64,000 nt of DNA from Bacteroidia bacterium (GCA_052325425.1 JBKQUY010000045.1:26739-90738), one strand, 5' to 3'. Shown: positions 2,005 to 22,310, counted from the stretch's first letter. A program made the numbers and translations. Notes: a model not told the origin generated them from the sequence alone.

Positions 2005-2019
2005 TTTTGCATCACATAG

Positions 2020-2200: not shown

Positions 2201-2592
2201 ATTGTAACAATCGCAATGATATAAACTGGTTATGCCGTTGGTAAGCAACATAGCCCCGTAAAACCAGAACAGAAAACAATCCGTCATAATCTGAAACATT
2301 TTTGCAGCCATCAATAAAATATGGTTAGCCCAAGTTTAACCAACCACAATAACTAAGGCGATGAGTTCATTGTTTTAAAAAATTTATCGCCTGATAATCT
2401 GCATCTTATGATGGAATACTACTCCAAATCCCCAAAGAAGTGAAACTCCCGGCCAACTTCAGTAATACAATAGGCAAAAACTAAAAATGAAGGAGGGTTG
2501 CACTATTTAAAAGTACATGCGGAAGTACTGAATCATGAAATCAAAGTTATACAGGAGTGCCCTGTTCACAATAAAAACAAAAACCTATAAAA

Positions 2593-3336: not shown

Positions 3337-3944
3337 CCAAAACAGAATTCAATAAGCTGCTTGAAACAGTTACTTATGAGAATGGCTTTGCATCAAAACA
3401 CGGCGAAACAAGGAACTACTATAGACCCTGGCTTGTGCATTCTTATAGGTTGGCGTTGGAAACGGGGGAGAGGGCAGAACCACTGGTTAGGTTGAAATGG
3501 AATGATATTATTGAAGTGGATGGTGGTATAGAAATGTTTAAGATTCAAAACCTTAAAGTAAATAGAATACAAACGGGCGAGAGTAAGGGTAAGTATGTCC
3601 GATATATTCCCATAACAAAGGGGTTGAAAGCATTGCTTATAGAACTCGGGTATAATGAAAAGAAAGGCAGCGATGAATATGTTTTAAAAACAGATGCCGG
3701 TGAATCAGTAGCCTATATCATGCAACTGATTACACGGAGTTTTAGCCATTACGTTGCAAAAGCCGGTTTACGCCATATCGTATTCAAGGATTTAAGGAAA
3801 ACCTATATTTCGCATCTGACAGTTGCAATGGGTTCAAATGCTAAGATGTATACCGGTCATAATGGCGATGCCAGGGTTATTGAGCAACACTACTTATCGC
3901 AGGCCTTTTTAAGTAGCAATCTGAAAGACTTTGATGTTCTGTAA
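3324..3944 (+). pseudogene. tyrosine recombinase/integrase, catalytic domain only (N-terminally truncated)
   Basis: Frame is open from 3324 with no ATG (the track starts at GTG 3435). Catalytic-domain landmarks: ETGERAEPLVRLKWNDI (Arg box), FKDLRKTYISHL, YTGHNGDARVIEQHY (His..Tyr). No arm-binding or core-binding domain is present. Confidence 0.8.
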
Positions 3945-3970: not shown

Positions 3971-4147
3971 GGTGCGTATTTTTGGTGTGCACTTTCTTAG
4001 GGCCTGGGGTTCCTTCCCTTATTTGACGCATGAATTCACTGGTTATGAAACTGCAAAATGATACTGAAAATCCTTGTGTCGCTGGTTCAATTCCAGCTGG
4101 TACCACACTCAGACAATTAAGTCCCATAGTAATGCGGGACTTTTTTT
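3971..4147 (+). repeat. att-like unit 1: arm-type GGTGYRYA direct repeats + tRNA-Phe(GAA) 3' half + hairpin terminator
   Basis: GGTGCGTA (3971-3978) and GGTGTGCA (3984-3991). ATGATACTGAAAATCCTTGTGTCGCTGGTTCAATTCCAGCTGGTACCA (4058-4105) runs from the anticodon loop through variable loop and T-arm to the acceptor 3' strand. No 5' half is present. Hairpin plus T7 at 4121-4147. Confidence 0.75.
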
Positions 4148-4414
4148 ATTCTTCTGGTGCGGAATTGAGGTGCCGGGTTTAAAGAGTATATAAAGCATTT
4201 TGAGTAAGGTAAAATTCAGATAACAATTACTCCTGCTAAAAGAAGTACTCTAAATTTGTAAGATTTTGGAGAGGCAAACTTATTGAAAGTGACAAGTGAT
4301 ACTGAATACAATTTTCATAAAACAACCCCAGCCCTCAACAGGAAAATATGATGAAATAGAATAAAGGAAACTTCATTGATAAACTTAAATTAACGGCCAT
4401 TAAAAATCATTCTC

Positions 4415-6157
4415 ATGTTCTGTCCTTGTTGCAAATATGAAGGTCAATTCTTGTCTTTTAGAACAAGACAGGAAGTTATTTGCCCCAATTGTAAGGCACA
4501 TGGAAGACACAGATTACTTTGGATGTTCCTGTTAAAACGAACCACTATTTTTAAGCCTGCCCCTAAAAGGCTTTTACACTTTGCCCCTGAAAATATATTT
4601 TATGAACATTTCAATAAATTGCCATTCATAGATTATGTTCCATGCGATAAGTTTGAGAAAGGGTACACCTATCCGCCAAAAACCTTACATGCTGACATAA
4701 CCGATATCCCCTTTGAAACTGATTCAATGGATTATATTATTTGTTCTCACGTGCTGGAGCATGTTCAGAATGATAAAAAAGCTATCGGAGAGTTGTACCG
4801 GGTTTTGAAGCCAGGTGGTCAGTTATTTTTACAAGTACCCCTGGATAAGAATCTTGCGAGCACACATGAAGATGATTTGGTAGTAAGTAATGAAGATAGA
4901 GAAAAGTTTTTTTGGCAATGGGATCATGTAAGATTATATGGCAATGACTTTATAGAAAGAGCAGGCAATTCCGGCTTCAAAACGGAACAAGTGTCAGCCA
5001 AATCCTTTTTAAGTGAAGCAGAGGTGGCAGACTATAAATGCAATGGTGATATTTATGTGTGCTTTAAACCGGTAAATGATTCGCTCCCTTCTCAACCGGA
5101 GGTTTCACAAAAGCTAAAAGAAAAACTGCTGGATACGTCATCATTTGAAAGTGTTGACCTGAAACTAAATAAGTATAATGCCCAGGTTGATATCCGGAAT
5201 CAATCAAAAATTGAAATTGCAGGCGCTGAGCGGTACACCTATGTTGATGATTTATGGATACTGAGTTCCTATTATAATCCGGAGAAATATAAAACGAAAA
5301 GGTATAATTATGAAACCTTTGTTGAGAAGATAAATAAGTCAAATTTAAACTATCGTATAATTGAATGCGCTTTTGGAAGAGACCCGTTTGAATTGCCTGC
5401 ATCGAAAAATGTTATACAAATCAGGGCGAGAGATGTAATGTGGCAAAAAGAACGATTATTGAACCATGCCATAAAACTATTACCGGCCAGTTGTACAAAG
5501 GTTGCATGGGTAGATTGCGATATATTATTTGAAAACCCTGAATGGGCGGTTGATACTTCTGTAGCGCTGGACCACTATAAGGTGGTTCAACCTTTTGAAT
5601 TTGCAGTCAGATTGCCTAAAGACGTTTTAAGTTTCAAAGGGATAGGAGACCTGTATTCGGGTTTTGGATATATTTATAAGAACTACCCTAACATTTTAAC
5701 TACAGGTAATTTTGCTAATCACGGGCATACAGGTTTCGCCTGGGCGGCTCAAAGAAGTATTCTTGAAAAGTATGGGTTATATGATGTTTGTATTGGGGGA
5801 ACGGCAGATCATGTTATGGCACACGCTTTTTGCGGTGACTGGGATACAGGATGCATAAATAGATTTATTGGCGCAAACAAGAATTTTTATAATCACTACC
5901 TGGACTGGTGTAAATCTATGTACAAAGAAGTGAAAGGGAAAGTCTCCTATGTCCAGGGCACTATACTGCATTTATGGCATGGAGAGATTGCAAATCGTAT
6001 GTATGCAGAAAGGGAGAGAAATCTTGAAGTGTTAAAATATAATCCATATAAAGATTTGAAAAAATCTAAAAATGGGCCATGGGAATGGAATACGAGGAAT
6101 AAAGAATTGAAAGAGTTTACACGTAACTATTTTGCATATAGAAAGGAAGACGGGTAA
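4415..6157 (+). CDS. fusion protein: zinc-ribbon + class I SAM-dependent methyltransferase + C-terminal nucleotide-sugar-transferase-like domain
   Basis: N-terminus CPCC..CPNC. MTase-like DYIICSHVLEHV and LKPGGQLFLQVP. C-terminal ~330 aa has a VAWVDCD (DxD-like) motif. Confidence 0.65.
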   Translation: MFCPCCKYEGQFLSFRTRQEVICPNCKAHGRHRLLWMFLLKRTTIFKPAPKRLLHFAPENIFYEHFNKLPFIDYVPCDKFEKGYTYPPKTLHADITDIPFETDSMDYIICSHVLEHVQNDKKAIGELYRVLKPGGQLFLQVPLDKNLASTHEDDLVVSNEDREKFFWQWDHVRLYGNDFIERAGNSGFKTEQVSAKSFLSEAEVADYKCNGDIYVCFKPVNDSLPSQPEVSQKLKEKLLDTSSFESVDLKLNKYNAQVDIRNQSKIEIAGAERYTYVDDLWILSSYYNPEKYKTKRYNYETFVEKINKSNLNYRIIECAFGRDPFELPASKNVIQIRARDVMWQKERLLNHAIKLLPASCTKVAWVDCDILFENPEWAVDTSVALDHYKVVQPFEFAVRLPKDVLSFKGIGDLYSGFGYIYKNYPNILTTGNFANHGHTGFAWAAQRSILEKYGLYDVCIGGTADHVMAHAFCGDWDTGCINRFIGANKNFYNHYLDWCKSMYKEVKGKVSYVQGTILHLWHGEIANRMYAERERNLEVLKYNPYKDLKKSKNGPWEWNTRNKELKEFTRNYFAYRKEDG

Positions 6158-6313
6158 TATTTAAAGATTTTTAACACTATTATCTCAAGGGGAGCACAAG
6201 AGATGTTCTCCGTTGTATTCTAATTGTATATGAAGCATAAATTGCAATTAATTATATATTTGGGTTTTGATGTTTACTGTTACCTATTTCACTTAACAGG
6301 TCAATTTTAAAGA

Positions 6314-7603
6314 ATGCAAAGGAATAAGACTACCTGGTATTTTCTATTATGTATACTAATATGTATATTACCGGTTTCCTGTGATATTCAGAAAAGACTT
6401 TATATGCCGGGGTATTTTATTCAAAAGGGAAGTTCCTTGTCGGGTAGAGTTTATTTAGCGGGGAAGTATACATCAAGAAATTTACCTGAGAGTAATATTG
6501 ACGATTCCTCTCAGATTGCTTTTAATCCTCAAAGCCCGTCATGGCTTAATTATATAAGCAATAAAACTATTATAGAAAAAGCTAAAAACTCTCTGCCTGT
6601 TTATATAAAAAATAAACCGCTGCATAATAATGGAATACTTTCAGAAGCCCGGCACTATAATGCGATAGTTCCACTTGAAAAAGTAAATAACAATATAGAC
6701 AACGTTAAGCCAGTGGGAAGCAATACACCTACGCTGGGTAAGGAAAAAGCGGGTAGCATTCCCGGCCCTATAAGGAATAACGAATATGAAAACCTTATAC
6801 TTGCCTTTTTAGCTGGTGCGGGTTCTGTTTTGTTGTTATCGGCAATGCGAAGTGGCATAAAGAAATACAAAAGTTACCTTAATAATTCAAAGTCAGAAGC
6901 AAATGAGGCGAAAAAAAACAAAGAGGAAATTGCCAATATGGCTGACAGGCTTGACAGATGCGCCGACAGGTTTGCGAATGCAAAGAATGAAAAAGTGGAG
7001 TTAGCTGCACGCAAAGCAGCAATTGCAATTACTAAATGCGATGATATCAGCAGGGCAAAAAAGCTTGAGAAAGCATTTAACGATACATACCTTTCTTCAT
7101 CCCAGGCTTCTGCCATACAGCATTTAAAGTTTAATAACTTATTAAGCAATGATTTAGGGTATGGTGGCACTACCGGCACACTGAAACCTGATGTGATAAC
7201 AACAACCGGAGGCTACTATGCAAACAGTGCCGGTTCTTTAAGCTGGACAATGGGAGAGCCCATTTCAGAGACAGTTTCAGACACCACCAACACCCTTACT
7301 CAAGGGTTTCAGCAAGGAGCGTATTCGGTAGTATCAGTTGTTAATGAGTCAACTCAATCAACAATTAATATATCTGTGTATCCTAACCCGGTCACTTCAT
7401 TGTTAAATATCAGGAGCGACTCCAGTGATCCTTTCCGTGCTGAGATAATTGACTTGGAGGGTAATATTATTGATGAACGGCTTTTTGAAAATGGGCAAGG
7501 GCAGATAGATTTAAGCAATCTTTCAGATGCTATGTATCTTTTAGGAGTTTATGACAAGGACGGAAACAGAATAAAAGTATATAAAATACAGAAAGTAGAT
7601 TAA
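6314..7603 (+). CDS. secreted/lipoprotein-like protein with T9SS C-terminal sorting domain
   Basis: N-terminal signal ending in LPVSC, one internal hydrophobic helix, and C-terminus ISVYPNPVTSLLNI..MYLLGVYDKDGNRIKVYKIQKVD. Confidence 0.7.
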   Translation: MQRNKTTWYFLLCILICILPVSCDIQKRLYMPGYFIQKGSSLSGRVYLAGKYTSRNLPESNIDDSSQIAFNPQSPSWLNYISNKTIIEKAKNSLPVYIKNKPLHNNGILSEARHYNAIVPLEKVNNNIDNVKPVGSNTPTLGKEKAGSIPGPIRNNEYENLILAFLAGAGSVLLLSAMRSGIKKYKSYLNNSKSEANEAKKNKEEIANMADRLDRCADRFANAKNEKVELAARKAAIAITKCDDISRAKKLEKAFNDTYLSSSQASAIQHLKFNNLLSNDLGYGGTTGTLKPDVITTTGGYYANSAGSLSWTMGEPISETVSDTTNTLTQGFQQGAYSVVSVVNESTQSTINISVYPNPVTSLLNIRSDSSDPFRAEIIDLEGNIIDERLFENGQGQIDLSNLSDAMYLLGVYDKDGNRIKVYKIQKVD

Positions 7604-7623
7604 CAACATTTAATAATTAACCG

Positions 7624-8151
7624 ATGAAAAAACATGTAGCATTTATTTCAGCACTTCTGTTATTATCGTGCACTTATGCATTCGGGCAGGCGCCTCAGGC
7701 ATTCAAGTATCAAACCAAAGCCAAAGATGCGTCAGGAAATAACATAGTGAACAGAAGTGTATCGTTCAGGATGAGTATAGTACAAGGCAATATGTCGGGC
7801 CCTGTAGTTTATAAAGAAACCGATACAGCAACCACAAACGCGTTCGGCTTAGCTACTTTAGATATTGGAGAAGGCATGGTTATTTCAGGAAGTATGTCTG
7901 CAATTAACTGGAGTAATGGCCCCTATTTTATTAAAATAGAATTCGACCCAAATGGTGGCAACAATTTTACATTAATGGGAATATCACAAATGTTATCAGT
8001 GCCATACGCATTGTATTCGCAATCATCCGGCGCTGTATATTCTAAAACACCGGGACAGGGAATGATACTTTCTTCGCCTAACGGCAATTGCTGGCAAATA
8101 ACTGTCAGTAATACCGGTGTAATTACGGCTACAGCTATTACTTGCCCATAA
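7624..8151 (+). CDS. small secreted hypothetical protein
   Basis: 175-aa ORF with signal peptide MKKHVAFISALLLLSCTYAFGQ. It starts 20 nt after the preceding gene. Confidence 0.6.
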   Translation: MKKHVAFISALLLLSCTYAFGQAPQAFKYQTKAKDASGNNIVNRSVSFRMSIVQGNMSGPVVYKETDTATTNAFGLATLDIGEGMVISGSMSAINWSNGPYFIKIEFDPNGGNNFTLMGISQMLSVPYALYSQSSGAVYSKTPGQGMILSSPNGNCWQITVSNTGVITATAITCP

Positions 8152-8519
8152 ATTTTTCATTATACGGAAGCAGCCCTTATAAATGTTACTAAAATTGGGT
8201 GCGCTTTTTGCTTCATTAACTTCTGTGTTCATTATGGAATGGGGCCAAGCACAATCTCCCCAACTATGAGATTATGCTGATGGTGCAGATGTGATAGCGT
8301 TTTTCTAAATAGGAATGCGCTTTCATCTGAACAACTTCAGATGATCTGTTGAAAATTGAACTTATTTAGTATCAATCGTTTAATACCACATCAATAAAAT
8401 TCTCCCGGTTTATAATACTTTGATAAAGAACTATGTGTAATTTTGCCGTACTTGAAAAAAATTGCAGGCATGCCTGCAGAAAAAAGTTCAGTACTATAAC
8501 TTACAAAACCCCCCCCCAA

Positions 8520-11500
8520 ATGAAAAAAATCGTCATTTTAATTTGTTGCGTGATTCTTTGCGTTGTATCTTTTACTGCCAGTGCCCAAACTATAGGAAAC
8601 CTTTGGGGAATGACAACTGAGAGTGGAGACAGCGGCGGCGGAACCATGTTCGGATTCAACCCTGTAACCGGTAACGATAGTATAATAGTACCTTTCTCAG
8701 GTCCGACAGGCAGCTACCCGTATTATAATAACAATATTATACAGACGAGCGGAGGTACCTTTTATGGCATAACCTATTATGGTGGCACCAATGATTATGG
8801 CACAATTTTCAAACGTACTGCTTATGGCAAAGCTACTGTTCTGCATAATTTTAACAAAGATGGCAATGATGGCTATTACCCATATGGCAGCATTATGATG
8901 GCATCTGACGGCATGTTATATGGAATGACCTATTATGGTGGAGCAAACGGTTATGGAATAATTTTCAAATGCGATACGCTTGGAAATTACAGGGTAATAC
9001 ACAACTTTGCCGGTGGAGCCACTGATGGCGAATACCCTTACATCGGAGGCTTGACACAGGCAGCCAACGGCACCTTGTTTGGCATGACCTATGATGGCGG
9101 GACAAATTCCGAGGGAACTATATTTAAATGTGATACTGCAGGCAACCTGACTGTAATTTATAGTTTTGGTACTAATGCAAACGATGGTTATTACCCTTAT
9201 AACAGCTTACTATTGGAATTAACGGAATGATGTATGGAACAACTTATGAGGGCGGAGGTTCAGGAAAATACGGAACTATATTCCAATGCGACACATTGGG
9301 TAACGAGAGAGTAATTTATTCTTTTTACACTGCCAATGACTCAGATTCCTATTACCTGTATGGTAACGTAATTCAAGCACCAAATGGCACCTTGTACGGC
9401 ATGGTACCTTATGGTGGTACAGGTTATTATGGCATAGTATATAAATGCGATACATTGGGTAATTTAAAGGTTTTATATAGTTTCGGAGGTCATTCCAATT
9501 ATGGTAAATATCCTTATGGCAGCCCTGTTTTCGGTAACGGAGATACCCTCTATGGATTAGTATATGAAGGAGGAACTAAGGGTTACGGCGCTATATTTAA
9601 ATGCGACACTAATGATGGCAGCGGCGCGAAGCTACTATATAATTTCACTGGTGGTTACCTTGATGGCGAATATCCTTATGGCACTCCCACATTAGGTTCA
9701 GATGGAAACCTGTATGGCTTGACATATGAAGGCGGAGTTACCGGAGAAGGGACAATATTTAAATATAACATGTCTACAGCAACTGAAAATATAGTGTACA
9801 ATTTCGGAACCAATGTACTTGGTAGTGATGGCTTAGAGGACTTTATACAAGGCAAGGACGGAAACCTGTATGGTATGGCAAACTCGGGAGGAGCTTATGG
9901 CAGTGGCACCCTTCTTAAATACAACCCCGTTACAGGTAAAACAACAGTACTCCATGCTTTTTATGACACGGCTAATAATGGCTCTTATCCTAAGTACGGA
10001 CGCCTTATTCAGGGTAGCAATGGTACACTTTACGGCGTAGCTGAATATGGTGGCTCAAATAATCTAGGCGTGGTATTTGAATATACTATTTCAGGTATGT
10101 TCAACGTACTTTACAGCTTTGGTACTAATGCCAATGATGGCTCCTATCCGGTAGGAGGCCTGGTAATGGAACAGAATGGCCTTTACGGGATGACTTCAAT
10201 TGGAGGTACTAATAATAACGGTATCATATTCAAATGCGATACGCTTGGAAATGAAACTATACTTTATAACTTCGGTACTAATTCTAACGATGGTAGTGAC
10301 GCAACAGGAAGCCTTATACAGTCATTACATGGTACTTTATACGGGATGACGAACAAGGGTGGAGCAAATGGTGATGGTATAATATTCAAATGCGATACAC
10401 TTGGAAATGAAACCGTACTTTATAGTTTCGGCACAAACAGCAATGATGGCTTAACTCCTTATGGCAGTCTTGTATTTGGAAGAGACAGTATGCTGTATGG
10501 TACCACAAGCAGCGGAGGTGCAATTGGTAATGGTACTGTGTTTAAGTCAGATACGTTAGGTAATGAAACAGTGCTCTATAACTTTGGCACTAATAGCAAT
10601 GACGGTTCTGACCCTGTTGGCAGCCTTATAATTGGCAGCGATAGTAACATATACGGTACAACCGAAGAAGGCGGACTAAATGGTTACGGAACTTTATTTA
10701 AATGTGATACCCTTGGTAACGAGGCTGTATTGTATAGTTTTGCCGGTAACAGTGATGGTGCATATCCTGAAATGGACCTGCTCGAAGTAATGAGCATCGG
10801 AGCATCATTATCAGCTACCAGTTGCTCGGGCACAATAGTAAATTCATCTGTAAGGGGTTCAGTTGCACCGTTAACCTATTCATGGTCTAATGGTTCTACA
10901 AGCTCTGCTGATACAATGAAAACTGCAGGCACTTATACCTTAATGGTTACCGATGCAAGGGGAATAACTGTTACTACAACAGTTACAACTACCTATAATG
11001 TGGTTAATGTTACTGCAAGCAACACTTCGGTATGTAATGGCTCATCTGCCAGCCTTAGTGCAAATGGCACAGGCGGTACAGGTAGCCTTACCTATAGCTG
11101 GATGCCGGGCAGCCTTAGCGGTTCTTCACCAAGCGTATCACCTGCTTCAACAATTACATATACGGCAACTGTAACCGATGGCAACGGATGTATGGACAGT
11201 GCAATGGAAACAGTAACTGTTGATTCATTGCCTGTTGTTACAATTACAGGTAAGGATACCATTAACCAGGGCTCAAATGATACACTTACTGCCACCGGCG
11301 GCACTACTTATATGTGGTCTGATGGCAGCTCAGGCAACCCTGATATTGTTTCACCTTCATTTACAGAAACCTTCACTGTATCTGTTACCAATAGCAATGG
11401 TTGTACCAGTACCGATACCATAAGGGTAGTAGTGAATATTACCACAGGTATGCATTCTGTTTTAGCCTCAAATTCAACCGCGGCATATCCTAACCCTGCT

Positions 11501-11716
11501 ACAAGCATGCTGAACCTTGCCTTCAATACAAGTTCAACCACCGATGGTATGATAGAAGTGTGCGACGTAACAGGTAATGTGATTATTACAAAAGAGCAAA
11601 CCATAAGCAATGGCGAGACTATGCAAATAGATGTATCAAACCTTGCAAGCGGCCTGTATTTTGTTAAAGTTACAACCGGGAAACAAATACAGGTAATGCG
11701 CTTTATTAAACAATAG
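8520..11716 (+). pseudogene. frameshifted ~1065-aa tandem-repeat (Gloeo_Verruco/GloVer-like ..LYGTT..GG..G.GTIFK.D..GN..VLYSFG...DG..PYGSL..) T9SS cargo protein
   Basis: Signal peptide MKKIVILICCVILCVVSFTASAQ at ATG 8520. About 20 repeats of ~45 aa continue uninterrupted across the junction between ORFs 8433..9230 and 9227..11716 in different frames. Cys-containing Ig-like repeats and T9SS CTD (AAYPNPATSMLNL..GLYFVKVTTGKQIQVMRFIKQ) at the C-terminus. Confidence 0.75.
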
Positions 11717-11738
11717 CATAATACATTGTACTAATTAA

Positions 11739-11765
11739 GAAAGGCGGCTAAAAGCCGCCTTTCTT
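11739..11765 (+). terminator. hairpin terminator after the repeat-protein gene
   Basis: GAAAGGCGGCT-AAA-AGCCGCCTTTC followed by TT. Confidence 0.6.
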
Positions 11766-11802
11766 ATGCCCTGCCTGAAGATATTCAACCTCTCACTGTA
11801 AT

Positions 11803-11894
11803 ATGATACTGAAAAATCCTTGTGTCACCGGTTCAATTCCAGCCGGTACCGCGTCAGAAATAAGCGCTTGTGAAAATGGCAGGCGCTTTTTTTT
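11803..11894 (+). repeat. att-like unit 2: tRNA-Phe 3' half (degenerate T-stem) + hairpin terminator, no arm repeats
   Basis: ATGATACTGAAAAATCCTTGTGTCACCGGTTCAATTCCAGCCGGTACCG (11803-11851), spacer CGTCAGAAATA, then hairpin AAGCGCTTG..CAGGCGCTT plus T-run (11862-11894). Confidence 0.65.
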
Positions 11895-11993
11895 GTGCCA
11901 GTGTGTACTTTTCAGTTTAAGTAAATTATTTTAAGAACTCTGAAAGGGTATATTATCAATATTCAAGGTCATTTTATATCATTAGTTTGCAAT

Positions 11994-12623
11994 TTAGCCT
12001 CTGTCTTTTTTTAACAGACAACGTTCCGGAAAAATATAGCTGGTGTTTCTGTCCTTCATCCAATCAATTACTTTTAATACTCCAATCAGGTTCATTATGA
12101 TTCCTAATGATATACCAATAATATAATCTCTGTTATTAACCAGGTGTTCAGAATAAATTATCTTAAGGAAATAATAAACTACCGGAACAAATAATAACAA
12201 ACTTGTCGCCATCCCTGCATTATAAAATGTTTTGCCTTTAATATTAAAAATCACTGTATGTACAAAGATATTTCCGATTGAAACCATTAGTGTGGCAATA
12301 CCCAGCCAAATAGCTTTTTCGGCAAATAAGGCAGCAAGAGTATACCCGGTCCAACCCAAGAAAACATTAATAAATAATGCTGAATTTGTATTTAGAGGAT
12401 AGCGGTCTGGTAAACTACTGTTGAACATTACTTTATTCATCATACCAGGGAATGTTCCTACAATACGATACTCTTCTAATTGATGAAATAATAATGTTGC
12501 CAGGCTTAACCACATAACTAGTTGATAATGGGTTAAGTTTAATCGGTCCAAATAAATAAAAGGAATTAGCATAAATGCTATAACCCCGCCTAAATCAAAC
12601 CAATGTTTCCTTAATAAAGCCAT
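11994..12623 (-). CDS. HXXEE-domain membrane protein
   Basis: 209-aa polytopic ORF with motif FHQLEEY. Confidence 0.65.
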   Translation of the reverse strand: MALLRKHWFDLGGVIAFMLIPFIYLDRLNLTHYQLVMWLSLATLLFHQLEEYRIVGTFPGMMNKVMFNSSLPDRYPLNTNSALFINVFLGWTGYTLAALFAEKAIWLGIATLMVSIGNIFVHTVIFNIKGKTFYNAGMATSLLLFVPVVYYFLKIIYSEHLVNNRDYIIGISLGIIMNLIGVLKVIDWMKDRNTSYIFPERCLLKKDRG

Positions 12624-12641
12624 TTTGCAAGATTACTATTT

Positions 12642-13832
12642 TTATGTAGCAGGGTGCGTTTGATGTTCATACCCTCTGAGGTATAAGGTTTTTATACGTT
12701 CCTGCCATTTTCTACCGATTTCAACAGATCGTTTGTGAGGGACAAAAAGCTCGAGTATACTATTAATAACCACTACCAGATAAGGATAATATTTAAGAAT
12801 TGTATCAGGAAGAGCCATTGTTTTACAAGCTCTCTGGCCCAAAAAGAAATGATTATATGCCAAATGTATTTTTACCAGTAGTTTTTTTTGCCATAAATAG
12901 TTAGTATAAGAAGAGGTGAAGGGCTCAAGCATCAGCGCATGAGCCAGGGCTTGAGTATCTTCATCGGCAGCCGATTGTGTAATTGTCCATTTATACAGGC
13001 TTTCGATCGCTTGTTTCTCTGTGTCAGGGAGATGGGCAGGAGGAATTCCCATTAAATAGCCTATATACTTCCACAGGTGAAGAACTCCCTTTATTTCCTG
13101 CTCGCTTATTTTGGTCCCCAATATTTTCAGTCCCTCCATAAAAGCAAGAGAAAATGCCAGATTGCCGGCAACCATGTCGCCCTGGTTAATAGGTATTCCC
13201 CATAAATCATTGCTCCAGCCCGGTGTTCTTTCTACCGCGGTTCTGGCGTAAGCATGCATCAGCCTTACTTTAATAGCACTCTTGAAACCTATAGAATCTC
13301 TCCGCATAGCATTTTCCCCTGTAACATTAACCCAAAACTCAAGAGTTTCAGCCATTCTTTTAGCCGCTCCTTTTTTCAGTGCCTGGGTATAAATTAAGGG
13401 CTTATTAATTGCTGAGGATTCGTAACCGCCCATAAGGCAGTAATTACGAAGAACCATGAGTGCAAGCGTGCCCCCTCTTCCGCAAAGCTCAGAGCCTGTT
13501 TTAAGCAAGTCCTGGTCAAGCCAGCCAGGTATAGTATCCACTTGTGCAAATAATTGCTGAATAGGTTCAGGAACATCATTAACAGCATGAAGTCCTTTAT
13601 TAAGGATTTCATCTATAAGCTTACTTGCTTCCTGAAATCCGATTTTTTCAAAAACTTCTTTAATTACCCTGTCTCCAATTATATCATATTCCAATAATAA
13701 CTTTCCATTCTCTTCAATACTTTCCTTAGCTGGGATCGTATCCAGTTTTTTCAGCATCTTTTTGCCGGTACCGTAAGTCCAATACTCTGAAAAAAAACCT
13801 GGAGAAGGATAAACAAATCTTTTGGGAAGCAT
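12642..13832 (-). CDS. MpaB/DUF2236-family oxygenase-like protein
   Basis: 396-aa ORF. The segment IKVRLMHAYAR resembles the conserved R..HA..R helix of the family. The start may be a downstream Met. Confidence 0.55.
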   Translation of the reverse strand: MLPKRFVYPSPGFFSEYWTYGTGKKMLKKLDTIPAKESIEENGKLLLEYDIIGDRVIKEVFEKIGFQEASKLIDEILNKGLHAVNDVPEPIQQLFAQVDTIPGWLDQDLLKTGSELCGRGGTLALMVLRNYCLMGGYESSAINKPLIYTQALKKGAAKRMAETLEFWVNVTGENAMRRDSIGFKSAIKVRLMHAYARTAVERTPGWSNDLWGIPINQGDMVAGNLAFSLAFMEGLKILGTKISEQEIKGVLHLWKYIGYLMGIPPAHLPDTEKQAIESLYKWTITQSAADEDTQALAHALMLEPFTSSYTNYLWQKKLLVKIHLAYNHFFLGQRACKTMALPDTILKYYPYLVVVINSILELFVPHKRSVEIGRKWQERIKTLYLRGYEHQTHPAT

Positions 13833-13909
13833 ATTCGTAACTCGTTGATGTATTAGCTATTTCAAAAATATGTAAAAGTTAAGATTCATACTTATTGAGA
13901 TTCCACTTG

Positions 13910-15235
13910 TCACATATCGTATTCCCATTTATTCCTAAAATTCACTTTTGCACCAAGCTTCTCAAATATTCGGTATAGCCCAAACCATGCTCGTCCATGA
14001 TAAATAAAGTTTGTATTTACTCCATCAGATTTATTTCTGAATTGGACAAATTCAGCCAATAGATTTCTCCCCCTTTCAATATAGCCCTGATTTTTACTAA
14101 AATCAAAAGAATCCGTTAAATAGGGTAATGCAACCCATTCATTATATGGTATCAGCGTTTTTTCGTAAAAAGATTCTATTTCATTTGCTCCATTCTTCTT
14201 TGTGAAAGTTCCCAAGCCGAAGTAGGCTTCAATAATAACTTCTTTATTAGCTTTCCCGCTTGTCAGTAAGCGCATCAGGTGATTGTATTTTCCAACAAAT
14301 TCCTTTGAAAATTCCTTTATACAACCAAAATCCAGAATACTTACTTTGCCATCCTCAGAAAAAAGATAATTACCCGGGTTCGGATCGGCATGCAACGTGT
14401 TAACTTCATAAAATAAATACGTGCTGGCATCAAAGATTGACTGCGCTACCTTGTCACGCAGCTTCTGGCTGGGGTTTTTACTTAACCATTCATCCGGGTG
14501 AGAGCCCGTGAGCAGGGATGTGGTAAGAATTACAGGGGAACAATACTCCTTATATATTTCTGGTATTGTGATCCTTGATGAGAAAGCATTTAAAAAACTT
14601 TTAAACCTCTCCGTATTTTTCGCTTCCAATAAATAATCCGTTTCTTCCAATAATCGTTCTTCAATCTCACCAAGCATTTTCATATGTTGCTGTTTTTGCG
14701 GGTGTACCGATAAAATTCCCTTTATTAATCCCAAATCATTTTGCAAAGTTTGTTTTATGCCGGGATATTGCAGTTTAACAGCCACACGTTGACCATCCGG
14801 GAGTGTGGCATTATGAACTTGACCAAGGGAAGCTGCAGCAAAAGCATCGTAATTAAAATCCGTGAAAAAATCTTCTGGTGGTTTACCAAGCCCGGCAATA
14901 AACATTTTCCGGGCAAGTGCACGGTTAAGGGGAGGAACCCGGTAACAAGATTTAGCCAATTCACGCTGATATACCTCCGGTAGCAAATCCAACTCAAGGC
15001 TGAGCATTTGAGCCATCTTAAGGGCAGAGCCGCGCAAAGACACCAAGGCTTCGAAAATTAGTTTAGAGGTCTCTTCATTGAACTTAGTAAGTACGATTTC
15101 TTTAGACTTTTTATCTAAAAATGGGCTTTTTACCACCTGCGCTATTTTCTTTGCCCCAACTTTAGCGACAACCGTCGCAACCTTTTGGCTGCGGGCAAGT
15201 TTTCCAACTCTGATGTCGTCTTTATTTTTTTCCAT
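13910..15235 (-). CDS. ABC1/AarF/UbiB-family atypical kinase
   Basis: ASLGQVHNATLPDGQRVAVKLQYPGI and HADPNPGNYLF..ILDFGC motifs. Confidence 0.85.
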   Translation of the reverse strand: MEKNKDDIRVGKLARSQKVATVVAKVGAKKIAQVVKSPFLDKKSKEIVLTKFNEETSKLIFEALVSLRGSALKMAQMLSLELDLLPEVYQRELAKSCYRVPPLNRALARKMFIAGLGKPPEDFFTDFNYDAFAAASLGQVHNATLPDGQRVAVKLQYPGIKQTLQNDLGLIKGILSVHPQKQQHMKMLGEIEERLLEETDYLLEAKNTERFKSFLNAFSSRITIPEIYKEYCSPVILTTSLLTGSHPDEWLSKNPSQKLRDKVAQSIFDASTYLFYEVNTLHADPNPGNYLFSEDGKVSILDFGCIKEFSKEFVGKYNHLMRLLTSGKANKEVIIEAYFGLGTFTKKNGANEIESFYEKTLIPYNEWVALPYLTDSFDFSKNQGYIERGRNLLAEFVQFRNKSDGVNTNFIYHGRAWFGLYRIFEKLGAKVNFRNKWEYDM

Positions 15236-15950
15236 GTCTTTTGTTTTTCTTATGAATTCCGTATGGCAAATTTCCGATGCCTTCGAACCATTTTGCTACA
15301 TGTGTTTTATATAAGAAACTCATAAATTCCAACCCGTTTGAAATAATCCCGCTTTTTATTACAGCCTCTATAATCGAAAGGCTTTTATCTATCAGCAGGG
15401 TAGTATTGTTAAAATCATCAGAGTCGTCTTTCAGCCAATAAGTTACTACTCCAATAAAGTAATCCCAGGCAAGTGATGGAAACAACCCTTTACCTGTTTG
15501 TTCGGGAATCTCACCGCTTTGTTCAGCAATATCGATGTAATTCGCAATCTCATTGGTGAAAGCCTTTTTTAGTGTAGTGGTTCCCCCTAAATAACCGGAA
15601 TAGGAGAGGAATACAGTTGCGAAAGTTTCCTGGACAAACTCACGGTCATTCAGCAGCCCTTCAATAATGGAATCAATTAAGAGTTGAGCCCGCTCCCGGA
15701 AGGTAAACTTTTCAAGCCCCTTGATTTTAGAGATTTTTTGCAGTGCGTTATGTAGGTTACGCTCGTAATATGCGTAAACTAACTTTTCTTTTGTAGGAAA
15801 ATAGTTATAAATGGTAGCTTCCGCAAGCCCTGCTTTTTTGGCTATCTCGCGCATTGTACTGGCCTGGTATCCTTTTTCTGTAATAACTTCAATTGCAGCA
15901 AGCATAAGGCTTTCCCTGTTTTTATTCTTCTGATTTTCTGATATTTTCAT
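15222..15950 (-). CDS. TetR/AcrR-family transcriptional regulator
   Basis: N-terminal HTH LMLAAIEVITEKGYQASTMREIAKKAGLAEATIYNYFPTKEKL. It overlaps the kinase gene by 14 nt, indicating an operon. Confidence 0.85.
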   Translation of the reverse strand: MKISENQKNKNRESLMLAAIEVITEKGYQASTMREIAKKAGLAEATIYNYFPTKEKLVYAYYERNLHNALQKISKIKGLEKFTFRERAQLLIDSIIEGLLNDREFVQETFATVFLSYSGYLGGTTTLKKAFTNEIANYIDIAEQSGEIPEQTGKGLFPSLAWDYFIGVVTYWLKDDSDDFNNTTLLIDKSLSIIEAVIKSGIISNGLEFMSFLYKTHVAKWFEGIGNLPYGIHKKNKRHGKK

Positions 15951-16113
15951 TTGTAATAAATATTAATTATTAAATAAACACTATACATTAATTGCCATAA
16001 TTTCAAATATAATGTACTGCAAATATACATTAAAAATAATACATGGCAATATTTCAGGCAGAAATTTATTTTAGTAAGGTGGTTTAACTATAGGACAAAT
16101 CAATTAATAGAGT

Positions 16114-16293
16114 AGTGTACACTTTTTGGTGTACGCTTTTGTGTGGTTTTTGCCCCTTTTGTAAATTTTTGCTCCGAATTAATTGATAATGAGGGCGTAA
16201 TATGGTGCTGAAAAATCCTTGTGTCGCTGGTTCAATTCCAGTTGGTACCAGACACAGAAATAAAAAGTCCCGCAGCATTGCGGGGCTTTTTTT
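16114..16293 (+). repeat. att-like unit 3: arm-type repeats + tRNA-Phe 3' half + hairpin terminator
   Basis: GTGTACA (16115-16121), GGTGTACG (16128-16135) and GTGTGGT (16141-16147). ATGGTGCTGAAAAATCCTTGTGTCGCTGGTTCAATTCCAGTTGGTACCA (16202-16250). AGTCCCGCAGCATTGCGGGGCT plus T7 (16266-16293). Confidence 0.75.
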
Positions 16294-16324
16294 ATGGTTG
16301 ATATGCACTGTAGGTACGAAAAAA

Positions 16325-16768
16325 TTATTGCATAGACCTTAACACGGATGACATTCTCTCAAGGTATTCAATAAACATATTTTGTTCAGCAGTACTATAC
16401 TGTGTTAAAACTTTATCGGCCATTTCACTCTTTCTATTTAAGAATATTTTAAAAGAGCTTCTACCTCTAACAGTTAAAGCGACATTCACTACCCTCCTGT
16501 CTTCATCCGAATGCACCCGGGTTAAAAACTTTTTCTCAACCAGCTTGTCAACAACACTTGTCAGGGTACTTAGCGGGGAATTCAGGGTCTCAGATAAATC
16601 CGTCATTTTAACATTCGTACTTTGTCCTACGAATATAATAACCTGTAATTCCTTTTCATTAAAACCTCCACAAACTTCTGTACATACCTCAGATTCGGCC
16701 TTAACCGCACTCATGAATTTGAGCATTGATGAAACAAACCGTTCCTTAATATCTTCCTTGGCTGCCAT
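16325..16768 (-). CDS. MarR-family transcriptional regulator
   Basis: Winged-helix segment LSTLTSVVDKLVEKKFLTRVHSDEDRRVVNVALTVRG. ATG at 16768 is preferred over the TTG-extended ORF to 16822. Confidence 0.8.
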   Translation of the reverse strand: MAAKEDIKERFVSSMLKFMSAVKAESEVCTEVCGGFNEKELQVIIFVGQSTNVKMTDLSETLNSPLSTLTSVVDKLVEKKFLTRVHSDEDRRVVNVALTVRGRSSFKIFLNRKSEMADKVLTQYSTAEQNMFIEYLERMSSVLRSMQ

Positions 16769-16972
16769 GGCTAATAGTGTATCTAATATTTCAAATATTA
16801 TACAATGAGAATATAAAAACAAAAATACTAATTACTCCTGCACTTTAGAAGGCACAAAAAAATAATTCCTGAAAAAAAGTTCCCATGTATTACTATTTTC
16901 GTAATATTGCAATATCGTAATAATATTAAGATGACCATAATTATATAATTATTTAAATTAAAATTCAGAAAA

Positions 16973-17899
16973 ATGAACGAAAGCATATTAATAACTGGAG
17001 CAAATATTGGGCTGGGGAAAGAGACTGCCCGTCAGCTAGCATTGAGAAAAGAAACAAAAAAGATAATTCTTTTCTGCAGAAATAAAGCGAAAGCCGAGGC
17101 AGCCAAAAAAGACCTTGAGGAGAAAACGGGAAAAAAGATTTTTGAAATTATTATTGGGGATGTTGCTGATGCAGATTCCGTAAGAAAAGCGGTGGAAAAA
17201 ATAAATGAACCTATTGATGCAGTAATTTTAAATGCGGGTGGAATGGTTGGGAAAACGGCTGGGAAAATTACGCCCTCCGATATGAATGAATTAGCTGCCA
17301 CGAATATTTTAGGTCATGTTATTTTAGTGGACGAATTAATTAAACGTGATAAGTTAAAAAAAGCCGTACTATCAGTCAGTGCGGAAGCTGTACCGGGAGT
17401 AAAGATGCTCGGAATGAAACCGGTTACCATGAAGACTTCTTCTGTAGATGAGTTTGCTGCTGTTCTTGATGGATCATATTTTGGCAATAAGTTTGATTAT
17501 GTGCAAGCATACGGATACGTTAAATATGTAATAACAATGTGGACCTTATCAATGGCAAGAAAATATCCTAACCTCAAATTTGTGGTTATGAGTCCTGGTA
17601 ATACAGGTGGAACTAACGCACCGGATAATTTGCCTCCCCCAATGAGATTTATGTTGAAGTATGTAATGATGCCTATTGTATTTCCAATGATAGGAGGAAT
17701 GGTGCATAAGATAGAAGTGGGTGTAAAACGCTTTGTAGATGCCATTTCGGATGAGCGATATAAAAGTGGGGTTTTTTATGCAAGTAAAGAGGGTAAATTA
17801 TCAGGAGATGTGGTTGATCAGAGCACTTTCTTTACTGATTTGAAAAATACTACATTTCAAGATAACGCTGATAAAGCAATCCACCGGTTTATAAAATAG
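16973..17899 (+). CDS. SDR-family oxidoreductase
   Basis: Rossmann motif ILITGANIGLGKETARQLA and NAGG motif (ILNAGGM). Confidence 0.8.
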   Translation: MNESILITGANIGLGKETARQLALRKETKKIILFCRNKAKAEAAKKDLEEKTGKKIFEIIIGDVADADSVRKAVEKINEPIDAVILNAGGMVGKTAGKITPSDMNELAATNILGHVILVDELIKRDKLKKAVLSVSAEAVPGVKMLGMKPVTMKTSSVDEFAAVLDGSYFGNKFDYVQAYGYVKYVITMWTLSMARKYPNLKFVVMSPGNTGGTNAPDNLPPPMRFMLKYVMMPIVFPMIGGMVHKIEVGVKRFVDAISDERYKSGVFYASKEGKLSGDVVDQSTFFTDLKNTTFQDNADKAIHRFIK

Positions 17900-17947
17900 G
17901 CATAATAATATTTAGTTAACGCTGAATATAACACTATCCCACCCATT

Positions 17948-18340
17948 ATGGATATGGAATTAAATGGAAGGGAGGGGCTAATTTGCTCTTTCTTTGAAAT
18001 ATTAAATAGCAAGGATGTCAGATCTTTAGGTGAAAAATTAGCTCCTACTGTAGAGTTTATTTTCCCTCTCTCTCTACCTTATGGAGGAGTTTGGAAAGGC
18101 TACGAAAAAGTTAAAGAATCCCTGAACTTGGCATTCACTTATCTGGGTTTTACCCAATTCGAAATACAGGAATATATTTTTCACAATGACTCTGTAATAT
18201 GTACAGGCACATTTAACATTGAAGATTCTAAATTTATGTTCATCGATGTTTTCACAATCCAGAATAATAGAATACTCAAGCGGCTGCACTTTGTTGATAC
18301 TGCTTTAATAATAAACACATTCACAAAAAACTTCCTCTAA
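17948..18340 (+). CDS. small hypothetical protein, possibly SnoaL/NTF2-like
   Basis: 130-aa ORF. Size and alternating pattern are compatible with an NTF2-like fold, but there is no diagnostic motif. Confidence 0.4.
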   Translation: MDMELNGREGLICSFFEILNSKDVRSLGEKLAPTVEFIFPLSLPYGGVWKGYEKVKESLNLAFTYLGFTQFEIQEYIFHNDSVICTGTFNIEDSKFMFIDVFTIQNNRILKRLHFVDTALIINTFTKNFL

Positions 18341-18639
18341 CTCAGAATAGAATTGCCCGCTTTGAGTAACTAGAGATATTAAAACACTAAAGGATGTTAC
18401 TTCTTTTTTGTTAGAAGTTTCATGGCTTTCTTCTTCTCAGCCCTTTTGGCAATGCGTTTTTTCCTTTTTATATTCTTTTTTAAAAGCTGTTTCATGGTTA
18501 TTTTTTTGGTTGTTTAATATTTCATTCTTAATTATACGCGTATAGGTTTTAACTGCGCTCATAATTTTTAAAAACATTGCCAATGTACGATTATATATTC
18601 AGTCCGACAGCATAATCATAAAAAGTGAGGGTATATAAA

Positions 18640-18828
18640 GGTGTGTACATTAAGGTGCGGTCTTGTGGTACGGAAACCACCGATTTCCACCCTGTTTTCC
18701 CAAATTTCCCCTTGATTGCATTGATATTGCCATCATAATATGATATTGAAAATCCTTGTGTCGCTGGTTCAATTCCAACTGGTGCCACGGCAGAAAATAA
18801 AATCCCGCAACATTGCGGGATTTTTTTT
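18640..18828 (+). repeat. att-like unit 4: arm-type repeats + tRNA-Phe 3' half + hairpin terminator
   Basis: GGTGTGTAC (18640-18648), GGTGCGG (18654-18660) and GTGGTACGG (18665-18673). ATGATATTGAAAATCCTTGTGTCGCTGGTTCAATTCCAACTGGTGCCA (18740-18787). ATCCCGCAACATTGCGGGAT plus T-run (18802-18828). Confidence 0.75.
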
Positions 18829-18860
18829 ATTTCATAAGTTTGTCTGCGAAAGTCCTAAGG

Positions 18861-22290: not shown

Positions 22291-22310
22291 TATAATAAAT
22301 TTAAAAAAAG

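Follow-up and report, generated by a model that had tools for sequence, protein, structure and literature searches.

Four tRNA-Phe fragments bounding integrase-less gene modules in an island of a Bacteroidia bacterium

Stacking of mobile DNA beside a tRNA gene is a well-known route to variable bacterial islands. Cis-mobilizable elements (CIMEs), and the accretion that produces them, were defined for the Streptococcus elements ICESt1 and ICESt3; they arise when an element integrates beside a resident one. The CIME definition is used in PMC6323972 and PMC5704250. In Dehalococcoides, islands are found in tandem at ssrA, and 15 of them, about half, have no integration module, which was explained by accretion and led the authors to read them as cis-mobilizable elements (McMurdie et al. 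2011, PMC3146451). Among the 3919 islands of Islander, crossover centred on the anticodon is the commonest class (2083 islands), and only 4 tandem arrays have at least 3 members, an integrase being required for each member (Hudson et al. 2015, PMC4383910). Scattered partial tRNAs are carried by the tycheposon islands of Prochlorococcus (Hackl et al., bioRxiv 10.1101/2020.12.28.424599).

Here we analysed a stretch of 64,000 nucleotides from an uncultured Bacteroidia bacterium (the window), in which four fragments of a tRNA-Phe gene (units) separate three gene modules. We consider it probable, at odds of around three in four, that the units are attachment-site junctions that arose as elements with a tyrosine integrase integrated repeatedly into one tRNA-Phe(GAA) gene.

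Four tRNA-Phe 3′ parts and the modules between them

An earlier note on this DNA had described four units of about 90 nt in the same orientation, and three kinds of search bear this out. A unit profile (nhmmer) detects four plus-strand copies of the 3′ part of tRNA-Phe(GAA), at 4053–4150, 11798–11897, 16197–16296 and 18735–18831 (E values between 1e-26 and 1e-29), and no similar match in the rest of the 64-kb window. A 22-nt probe for the T-arm and acceptor strand has exactly four matches, all on the plus strand and with 0–2 mismatches, at 4084, 11830, 16229 and 18766; it has none in 100 shuffles, so that none is expected by chance. A repeat search of the window reports the same four-copy family, labelled D6.

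The units are tRNA-Phe 3′ parts and none is a tRNA gene, as the note had also held. Neither ARAGORN nor Rfam calls a tRNA at any of the four, and the sole tRNA in the window is a tRNA-Met at 61556. From TCCTT to the acceptor end, the units agree at 31–34 of 34 positions with the intact tRNA-Phe(GAA), whose sequence is the same in six related contigs, and the tRNA part of unit 1 is identical to the intact tRNA-Phe of contig L013 at 51 of 51 positions. All four units thus have the 3′ match to a cognate tRNA that Islander looks for. In all well-preserved units the stretch homologous to the tRNA starts from the 5′ edge of the anticodon loop, a canonical crossover sublocation in the Islander sense, and the boundary is sharp: upstream of CTGAAAA, the units have cTTAATAtGRTA and the tRNAs have AGAGCAGAGGA.

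Some details needed correction. A hairpin with a T-run had been described after each copy; those of copies 2, 3 and 4 rank highest among the terminator-like sites of the region, and copy 1 has a degraded one. In copy 1, the spacer sequence is CAGACAATTAA rather than CAGAAATAA, and the modules, given as 7.7, 4.4 and 2.5 kb, measure 7647, 4299 and 2438 nt between unit ends. The features of the array are as follows (positions in the window).

1–3332: element 0, the right-hand part of the leftmost island segment
108–704, minus: Fic/DOC protein of element 0 (Pfam)
695–1159, minus: HTH protein of element 0 (Pfam)
2593–3336, plus: unrelated 247-aa ORF, which takes the place of the 5′ part of the integrase gene
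3333–3944, plus: truncated tyrosine integrase (Pfam Phage_integrase, tblastn)
3971–4048, plus: putative upstream (P-type) arm of unit 1, with repeats GGTGCGTA (3971) and GGTGTGCA (3984)
4032–4048, plus: proximal box GAATTCACTGGTTATGA in the upstream arm of unit 1
4053–4150, plus: unit 1; tRNA-Phe 3′ part at 4063–4113, anticodon loop at 4064–4070
4121–4140, plus: degraded hairpin of unit 1, then a T-run
4156–4176, plus: putative downstream (P′-type) repeats after unit 1, GGTGCGGA (4156) and GGTGCCGG (4169)
4151–11797: module 1, 7.6 kb; methyltransferase-domain protein, three T9SS-sorted or secreted proteins and a 175-aa ORF (Pfam)
11798–11907, plus: unit 2; anticodon loop at 11809–11816 with one extra A, tRNA part to 11851 (31/34 match), hairpin at 11862–11888, AGTGTGTA at 11900
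11898–16196, all genes minus: module 2, 4.3 kb; HXXEE protein, MpaB-like oxygenase, ABC1 kinase and TetR regulator (Pfam)
16114–16296, plus: unit 3 with putative P-type arm; repeats AGTGTACA (16114) and GGTGTACG (16128), anticodon loop at 16208–16215, tRNA part to 16250 (33/34 match), hairpin at 16262–16291
16297–18734: module 3, 2.4 kb; MarR, SDR, SnoaL-like protein and x segment (Pfam)
16325–16822, minus: MarR of module 3
16973–17899, plus: SDR of module 3
17948–18340, plus: SnoaL-like protein of module 3
18397–18599: x segment of module 3, with a 32-aa Lys-rich ORF on the minus strand
18640–18831, plus: unit 4 with putative P-type arm; repeats GGTGTGTA (18640) and GGTGCGGT (18654), anticodon loop at 18746–18752, tRNA part to 18787 (32/34 match), hairpin at 18799–18824
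18861–19775, plus: DAGK/YegS-family lipid kinase, the conserved right flank of the array (Pfam)

The integrase remnant and the direct repeats

Copy 1 alone adjoins an integrase gene, and that gene is truncated; both points had been made before and both hold. Homology to relatives of the integrase starts at 3333, directly after the stop codon of the unrelated 247-aa ORF, and residues 71–272 of one relative, P0002, map to 3333–3941 with 81% identity (tblastn). From a GTG start, the ORF spans 3435–3944 and matches Pfam Phage_integrase at profile positions 29–166 of 172. About 203 C-terminal residues are kept from a family with a length of about 430 aa (423–433 aa in full-length relatives). A Pfam scan of ORFs and tblastn revealed no further integrase in modules 1–3 or in the rest of the window. 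With four fragments and a single truncated integrase gene, left of unit 1, where an integrase in each island is called for, the array would be filtered out or merged by the Islander method (PMC4383910).

The truncated gene ends 27 nt ahead of the direct repeats of unit 1. Strict GGTGYRYA occurs at 3971, 3984 and 18640, and looser forms occur at 16114/16128 and 18654, with a spacing of 13–14 nt. The note had placed such repeats upstream of copies 1, 3 and 4: copy 3 has the looser forms only, and GGTG-type repeats also lie downstream of copy 1 (4156 and 4169) and copy 2 (11900). In the flanks of the four units, GGTGYR was observed 6 times against 0.83 expected (Poisson p = 2e-4, the test being post hoc). 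Measured from the tRNA-derived part, the upstream occurrences lie on one strand at −100/−87, −88, −113/−99 and −100, and the downstream occurrences lie at +84 to +89 and +98. The offset of about +85 seen for the downstream repeats of unit 1 recurs in L011, behind both the tRNA and the unit, and behind the L013 tRNA and the L020 unit; at intact tRNAs, only the downstream set is present.

Blocks of the unit 1 upstream arm recur ahead of unit 3, two L023 units and unit u′ of the relative REL, and the arm and unit at position 3 share 81–82% identity over about 170 nt with the two L023 units. At unit 2, the terminator of the gene before it has taken the place of the upstream arm. Two relatives of the integrase, P0009 and P0012, have direct-repeat pairs of their own, with a spacing of 13–14 nt, directly after the integrase gene; in P0009 the repeats are followed by a stretch that, by eye, matches the 3′ part of a tRNA-Leu (the contig ends in the anticodon loop, and there is no ARAGORN call). 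The proposal that the GGTG repeats are arm-type sites gains support from the fixed offsets and from these pairs; the repeats presumably bind the N-terminal domain of the integrase.

The locus in related genomes and the readings that it allows

Neither the window nor the known 1.4 kb of sequence to the left of it contains a tRNA-Phe. We compared the locus with that of five relatives, REL (L006 and L005 combined), L011, L020, L023 and L024, and used contig L013 for its tRNA. In the relatives, an identical tRNA-Phe(GAA) adjoins a conserved PAS-SpoIIE gene. In four to five of them (REL, L011, L020 and L023 by name), the intact tRNA is followed by 1–5 same-strand units that bound modules of 0.3–2 kb; L024 has the tRNA-Phe and an island, but no unit. 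An intact tRNA-Phe that agrees with copy 1 at 51 of 51 positions is present on contigs that share samples with contigs identical to the window.

The left flank of CoaX, PAS-SpoIIE and tRNA-Phe is conserved in all, and a DAGK gene closes the island in four, that of the window having 77–81% nucleotide identity to the array-closing gene of REL, L023 and L024. The genes found between units are almost all different in each genome. Element 0, the first kilobase of which has a raised GC content of 0.47, has no counterpart in any relative’s island; module 1, which has no recombinase, is absent from all relatives, and module 2 was not found in them. The MarR and SDR genes of module 3 are common to REL and L023, in which the SDR gene has the opposite orientation and sits on the opposite flank of MarR, and the x ORF is conserved in six genomes. 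A comparison at the module boundaries, suggested in the note, reveals arrays that begin at an intact tRNA, turnover of content between units, and presence/absence variation within conserved flanks of the kind that Islander requires. Separately, one relative’s module carries an ORC/Cdc6-like AAA+ gene, without a recombinase.

A pattern specific to the fragment matched one locus in 185,579 species genomes and one in metagenome contigs, both of them the syntenic locus of one relative, and had 0 matches in viral contigs; the unit is thus not dispersed. Together with the arrays behind the tRNA and the content turnover, this supports serial integration at tRNA-Phe, the model that the note had favoured. 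REL and L023 differ by an extra module in REL (a 256-aa gene) beside the tRNA, with the former tRNA 3′ end displaced ahead of the SDR–MarR segment (REL 9380–11193 corresponds to L023 11324–13135, 88% identity). Over 106 nt, unit 2 together with the sequence downstream of it shares 84% identity with the present L013 tRNA and its flank, implying that one lineage of elements visited repeatedly.

In serial integration, the attP of an incoming element would comprise the tRNA 3′ part from the anticodon loop onward and the element’s own terminator. Strand exchange, probably in the anticodon loop, would rebuild an intact tRNA from the element’s copy and push the old 3′ part and terminator downstream as a displaced fragment; repeated integration would stack modules with a displaced fragment between each. 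An internal unit would take its upstream arm from the module to its left and its downstream arm from the module to its right, both with GGTG-type repeats, while the intact tRNA would retain only a downstream arm and the outermost unit, unit 4, only an upstream arm. That unit 4 has no downstream repeats is expected of an outermost junction. The integrase genes would later have been lost or truncated, and the leftover modules may today be movable only by a recombinase in trans, as cis-mobilizable elements, or be lost through recombination between units.

Several observations count against this model. One is that the sequence known, the window and 1.4 kb to its left, contains no tRNA-Phe. Some junctions are imprecise: the 5′ part of the REL unit at 9380 is missing, and REL u″ is disrupted in the acceptor strand. 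One internal position holds a 293-aa gene in L023, an LCM methyltransferase in REL and the SnoaL-like gene in the window, which is at odds with insertion solely at the tRNA and calls for insertion at internal sites or for loss that differed between genomes. In the tRNA-like parts, just 0–3 of 34 positions depart from the tRNA, whereas genes shared between the genomes are 75–89% identical, so that the units are better conserved than neutral scars of the same age would be. Simple decay should also have left some integrases intact, and there is none in the window or in the stretches retrieved of the relatives’ islands (five relatives, around a dozen modules); no element that could be the parent, having both an intact integrase and a tRNA-Phe attP, was found.

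An alternative that we regard as unlikely is that the tRNA-Phe locus is a maintained platform for cassette exchange. A tyrosine integrase of about 430 aa, encoded elsewhere or supplied in trans by a transient element, would insert, excise and shuffle small integrase-less modules at complex att units, each made up of upstream arm, tRNA half, terminator and downstream arm, that continuing recombination keeps intact, and modules as small as a single gene of 32–39 aa may be swapped both at the tRNA and at internal units. The dozen or so integrase-free modules across six genomes are in line with this, as are the different occupants of one internal position, the small divergence of the tRNA-like parts and the conservation of arm and unit between genomes at the level of coding DNA. 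So are the very small modules, among them modules of 0.3–0.4 kb with only the x ORF of 32–39 aa and, in L023 and REL, modules with a single gene. The REL MAG encodes, on another contig, a full-length member of the integrase family (P0140), but no tRNA-Phe piece lies beside it. In relatives, several units show clear decay (REL u′, u‴ and the 5′-truncated unit at 9380), core genes rather than a recombinase flank the head of the array, and the modules are multi-gene, occupy both strands and have their own regulators. No circular or alternative junction was seen; all of the few contigs that overlap unit 1 show the same junction. If it did operate, such a platform would be a tRNA-anchored functional analogue of an integron, with tRNA-Phe as its entry site.

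Less probable still is an origin without site-specific recombination, in which the 3′ end of tRNA-Phe and its terminator were copied by local duplication or unequal crossing-over and unrelated genes entered later. Within a genome, the hairpins after units tend to resemble each other and the tRNA hairpin (L011, L020, REL and L023), which local copying or gene conversion could produce. Such copying gives no account of why each well-preserved copy begins at the 5′ edge of the anticodon loop, why copies share non-tRNA upstream sequence with ordered repeats and an integrase remnant abuts one such arm, why intact tRNAs bear the downstream set alone, or why wholly foreign genes lie between copies.

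Least probable is that the units are tRNA-half-like small RNA genes or cis-elements, the alternative raised in the note, or a dispersed MITE, REP or terminator-type repeat family: each unit ends in a good intrinsic-terminator-like hairpin and a TAnnTTTG-like box is visible by eye in the unit 1 upstream arm, but the box lacks conservation from unit to unit, Rfam yields no family at its gathering score (a permissive search gave only chance matches driven by the terminators), pairs of the T-stem are disrupted in units 2 and 4, in the L011 unit and in L023 unit b by changes that no second change compensates, several relatives’ copies have decayed, and the four copies in the window are confined to one locus, as are the matches in the collections.

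Comparison with known islands

On the reading that we prefer, serial integration, the array resembles an integron in that ordered same-orientation recombination sites separate small modules downstream of one entry point. The loose analogy drawn in the note fails on the features that define integrons. There is no IntI-type integrase with attI at the head, which in the relatives consists of tRNA-Phe after PAS-SpoIIE, CoaX and LptC. The sites would be tRNA-derived double-strand att sites with arm repeats rather than folded attC sites, and instead of single promoterless co-oriented ORFs the modules have 3–5 genes on both strands, with TetR and MarR regulators.

Tycheposon islands, which with CIMEs and the Dehalococcoides ssrA islands are the nearest precedents, are likewise hypervariable and tRNA-anchored, with neighbouring elements separated by a partial tRNA alone, and contain fragmented integrases and extra partial tRNAs that are read as older integrations (10.1101/2020.12.28.424599). 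Their hallmark module of replication genes and a large recombinase is not seen here, the array in the window having neither a large tyrosine or serine recombinase nor a primase/helicase, and the phylum differs.

As in CIMEs, functional-looking att sites in direct orientation flank segments without recombination or transfer genes: same-strand units lie at both ends of each of modules 1–3, and a recombinase or transfer domain was found in none of the three. The two cases differ in host phylum, integrase family and target gene, and mobilization, shown experimentally for CIMEs, is putative here. With Islander islands, the locus as seen in the relatives shares an intact tDNA and a displaced 3′ fragment at the island ends, and a probable crossover centred on the anticodon (class A in the sublocation scheme of Williams 2002).

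The tandem ssrA islands of Dehalococcoides also follow one another downstream of a single small-RNA gene, the 3′ end of which is repeated directly at the boundary of each island; a conserved non-target motif just upstream of the repeats marks the insertion point, and content is strain-specific (PMC3146451). Their target is a tmRNA at the T-loop with a 20-bp repeat and their enzyme is a serine recombinase (DsiB/CcrB-like), whereas here the target is tRNA-Phe at the anticodon loop, with about 50 nt and a terminator repeated, and the enzyme belongs to a tyrosine integrase family of about 430 aa. No module here has an intact integration module, and sizes go down to 0.3–2.5 kb. The array is unusually long and is without its recombinase genes; otherwise it belongs to a known type of island.

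tRNA-Phe 3′ parts and an integrase remnant

A 22-nt probe for the T-arm and acceptor strand has four plus-strand matches in the window, at 4084, 11830, 16229 and 18766 (0 in 100 shuffles). A profile of these copies recovers the four units over the ranges listed here (E values between 1e-26 and 1e-29), and the rest of the window has no comparable match.

Units in the window
4053–4150, plus strand: unit 1
11798–11897, plus strand: unit 2
16197–16296, plus strand: unit 3
18735–18831, plus strand: unit 4

Every copy holds the GAA anticodon loop, CTGAAAA, together with the 3′ anticodon stem, variable loop, T-arm and 3′ acceptor strand; past a short spacer come a hairpin and a T-run. The hairpins of copies 2–4 are the strongest terminator-like sites of the region. 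Neither ARAGORN nor Rfam identified a tRNA at these sites, and the sole tRNA of the window is a tRNA-Met at 61556. The earlier note described four tRNA-Phe 3′ halves, none of them a tRNA gene, and probe, profile, ARAGORN and Rfam all confirm this. A candidate decayed unit at 22305–22337 was rejected, as the site is a terminator only.

Many window proteins carry a T9SS sorting domain, by which the organism is assigned to the Bacteroidota. A 52-aa (156-nt) repeat recurs in both the ORF at 8433–9230 and that at 9227–11716, which jointly resemble a single large repeat protein secreted by the T9SS; their 4-nt overlap points to a frameshift-split single gene or a coupled pair. At 108–1159, a Fic/DOC gene and an HTH-protein gene overlap, with a toxin–antitoxin-like layout, adjoined by the gene for a 435-aa HNH_5-domain protein (L001 2809–4116, left of the window). 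These genes lie in the leftmost island segment, in which GC content is up to 0.47.

The ORF at 3435–3944 matches Pfam Phage_integrase (profile positions 29–166 of 172) and ends 27 nt ahead of the unit 1 repeats. Homology to its closest relative, P0002, begins at 3333, directly past the point at which an unrelated ORF of 247 aa stops. Because full-length members of the family have 423–433 aa (a P0135-like protein of 433 aa is 85% identical to the closest relative of the window fragment), around 230 N-terminal residues are missing, a part that would take in the arm-binding and core-binding domains; the integrase next to copy 1 is thus truncated, as had been proposed. No second integrase was found in the window.

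No relatives of this integrase were found in viral contigs. A parent element in which a tRNA-Phe half adjoins an intact integrase was sought among the relatives P0009, P0012 and P0140 and not found; of these, P0009 and P0012 are truncated remnants too. Two distant relatives have direct-repeat pairs, 13–14 nt apart, immediately 3′ of the gene: TTTCCGCACC occurs twice after P0012, and AGTGTGCACC twice after P0009, the latter followed by a stretch that, read by eye, resembles the 3′ part of tRNA-Leu and ends with the contig, within the anticodon loop (no ARAGORN call). The variation of the repeat sequence with the integrase fits presumed arm-type binding sites. In L009 (8413–8616) and sibling contigs, P0009 lies between core genes and this tRNA-Leu(TAA) 3′-part match, and in one sibling a further Arm-DNA-bind_5/SAM_5 integrase is inserted at the same place. 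The locus looks like a second, putative hot spot of this type, at a different tRNA.

Downstream of P0140 (430 aa, full-length, same family) there is no tRNA-like sequence; the 840 nt 3′ of the gene contain several repeated short stem-loop-like motifs. P0140 comes from the same MAG as the related island REL, in a separate island (L026/L025, DATHNG010000215.1, 5900–21293) with a second integrase fragment, a DNA methylase, Schlafen/AlbA_2, two NA37 proteins and a RelA_SpoT-domain protein, a gene set that makes it look like a defence island.

tRNA-Phe islands of related genomes

Left of the window, no tRNA was found in the 1.4 kb covered by identical short contigs (1.3–4.2 kb), the stretch that holds the HNH_5 gene. 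A fragment-specific DNA pattern (the unit sequence including non-tRNA bases 5′ of the anticodon loop) was searched for in 185,579 species genomes, where its sole match was a locus of the Bacteroidia MAG L005. Among metagenome contigs it matched L006 alone, a contig overlapping L005, and no viral contig matched, so the unit is no widely dispersed repeat. On L006, an intact tRNA-Phe(GAA) points the same way as the units and is preceded by a PAS-SpoIIE gene, the orthologues of which were used to locate related islands. The orthologue P0026 (L015–L019) has no tRNA-Phe after the gene and was uninformative.

Order of elements in related islands (u, unit; x, a small conserved ORF; modules in parentheses)
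REL (L006 and L005): tRNA, (256 aa), u with truncated 5′ end, (SDR MarR), decayed u′, (LCM methyltransferase), broken u″, (x), arm and hairpin, DAGK lipid kinase, decayed u‴
L023: tRNA, (SDR MarR), u, (293 aa), u, (x), u, (259 aa), hairpin, DAGK
L020: tRNA, (T9SS protein), u, (ORC/Cdc6-like), (x), hairpin, core genes
L011: tRNA, (x), u, other genes
L024: tRNA, (255 aa), (x), about 8 kb without units, DAGK
L013/L014: SpoIIE, then tRNA-Phe; same samples as the window-identical contigs

The tRNA-Phe is identical in all six mapped loci, and no integrase was called in the examined stretches of the relatives' islands. In L013/L014, 51 nt of the tRNA-Phe (ACTGAAAA...CACTCAGA) are identical to unit 1, and its terminator and the flank beyond are similar to those of unit 2 (84% over 106 nt). 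An intact tRNA-Phe with units in the same orientation, the arrangement that the earlier note proposed for the window, is seen in REL, L023, L020 and L011.

From the tRNA-Phe to the right flank, gene content is almost wholly different across six genomes, and the core flank has 70–84% nucleotide identity; modules bounded by units differ between genomes beside a conserved core, as expected from the earlier account. Three pieces are common among genomes, always in the order SDR–MarR, x, DAGK. REL differs from L023 by one additional module at the tRNA, with the old tRNA 3′ end now ahead of SDR–MarR, in agreement with the prediction of the model. Some details are not a clean fit to insertion solely at the tRNA. 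The slot between SDR–MarR and x holds different modules in L023, REL and the window, and several REL junctions are truncated. The window SDR (16947–17909) is 87–90% identical to those of REL (9467–10427) and L023 (11408–12358), and is inverted and on the other side of MarR, giving a divergent MarR/SDR pair where the relatives have a co-directional one; the end points of this rearrangement showed neither unit nor repeat. Past DAGK, the relatives' right flanks have no counterpart in the window that would mark the right end of its island. The locus is a hypervariable island of an uncultured Bacteroidia lineage, presumably anchored at tRNA-Phe in the window as it is in the relatives, with near-complete turnover of content between related genomes.

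Positions of the x ORF
Window: 18495 to 18400, minus strand (within segment 18397–18599)
REL: 12327, plus strand
L011: 11471, plus strand
L020: 15510, plus strand
L023: 14656, minus strand
L024: 12436, minus strand

The x ORF encodes 32–39 aa, is rich in Lys and Arg (MKQLVKKNIKRKKRI.K..EK.KAMKL...) and occurs within this island in each of the six genomes; in L023 and L011 it forms the smallest module, of about 0.3–0.4 kb between two units. The peptide is identical in REL and L020 despite around six synonymous differences in the DNA, and so looks like the product of a real gene under purifying selection. The 32-aa peptide has no Pfam match and none among 1.84 billion representative proteins. 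Orientation is split three to three (REL, L020 and L011 one way; the window, L023 and L024 the other). In the segments compared (window 18397–18599, REL 12298–12439, L020 15407–15622 and L011 11380–11580), x is flipped while the neighbouring GGTG-repeat arm keeps the same orientation; the C terminus of the peptide differs with orientation, and both ends of the segment carry a short motif (ATAATCGTA / GCATAATCRTA). We considered and dropped an invertible flip-flop switch: the split follows genome relationships, so one ancestral inversion is enough.

Origin of the array

Common to the units on the 5′ side of CTGAAAA are cTTAATAtGRTA and a box, GAATTCATTRATAATGA; the tRNAs have AGAGCAGAGGA there. 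Judged by sequence, this boundary is anticodon-centred, as in the most frequent class of tRNA integration sites (PMC4383910). At fixed offsets from the tRNA-derived part, one strand carries GGTGYR motifs; the flanks of the four window units hold 6, compared with 0.83 expected (a post hoc test).

Offsets of GGTGYR motifs (nt)
Upstream, unit 1: −100 and −87
Upstream, unit 3: −88, with AGTGTACA 14 nt before
Upstream, unit 4: −113 and −99
Upstream, REL u′: −100
Downstream, unit 1, L011 tRNA, L011 unit, L013 tRNA and L020 unit: +84 to +89
Downstream, L013: +98

The downstream set stands alone at intact tRNAs and the upstream set alone at the outermost unit 4. Stacked integrations would yield attL (B-O-P′), hybrid (P-O-P′) and attR (P-O-B′) sites, which would match this distribution. 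Together with the fixed offsets and the analogous repeat pairs after the integrase relatives' genes, it favours the suggestion that the repeats are putative arm-type sites. The locus offers a candidate pairing of a family of around 430-aa integrases with a presumed site, comprising an anticodon-loop crossover, predicted to lie in CTGAAAA, and GGTG-type arm repeats at fixed offsets.

Boundary, arms, the relatives' arrays and content turnover support the main model of the earlier note, serial integration at an upstream tRNA-Phe in the same orientation. We consider it probable (roughly 0.75) that such integration built the array up by accretion at a tRNA gene of this uncultured lineage of Bacteroidia.

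An active cassette platform with integrase supplied in trans is rather unlikely. About a dozen modules, some tiny, lack an integrase, arm and unit are conserved like coding DNA (81–82% over 170 nt), and the tRNA-like parts match the tRNA at all but 0–3 of 34 positions; against this stand the decayed units, and alternative junctions are not in evidence. Should integrase-less modules turn out to move in trans, a tRNA gene would here serve as the base of a natural site of cassette exchange. Local duplication without a recombinase is improbable, as it leaves the common boundary, the shared non-tRNA arm and the adjoining integrase remnant unexplained. Least probable are small RNA genes or riboswitch-like elements, which we dropped (no meaningful Rfam match at gathering score or permissive thresholds; pair-breaking changes in the T-stem of units 2 and 4, the L011 unit and unit b of L023, none of them compensated; decaying copies in relatives), and a dispersed (MITE) family, since across species genomes, metagenome contigs and viral contigs the fragment-specific pattern matches the single syntenic L005/L006 locus alone.

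Comparison with known systems

The analogy with integrons, also raised earlier, fails on every defining feature of integron membership. The closest precedent is the tandem ssrA islands of Dehalococcoides, around half of which are without an integration module and are read by the authors as cis-mobilizable elements formed by accretion (PMC3146451). Tycheposon islands likewise have a partial tRNA between neighbouring elements, fragmented integrases and stray partial tRNAs (bioRxiv 10.1101/2020.12.28.424599). Integrase-dependent island finders miss an array of this kind because its recombinase genes have all been lost and its att sites kept. Islander reports only 4 arrays of at least 3 members among 3919 islands, because an integrase is demanded in each member (PMC4383910); arrays like that of the window are under-counted by this method rather than new in kind.
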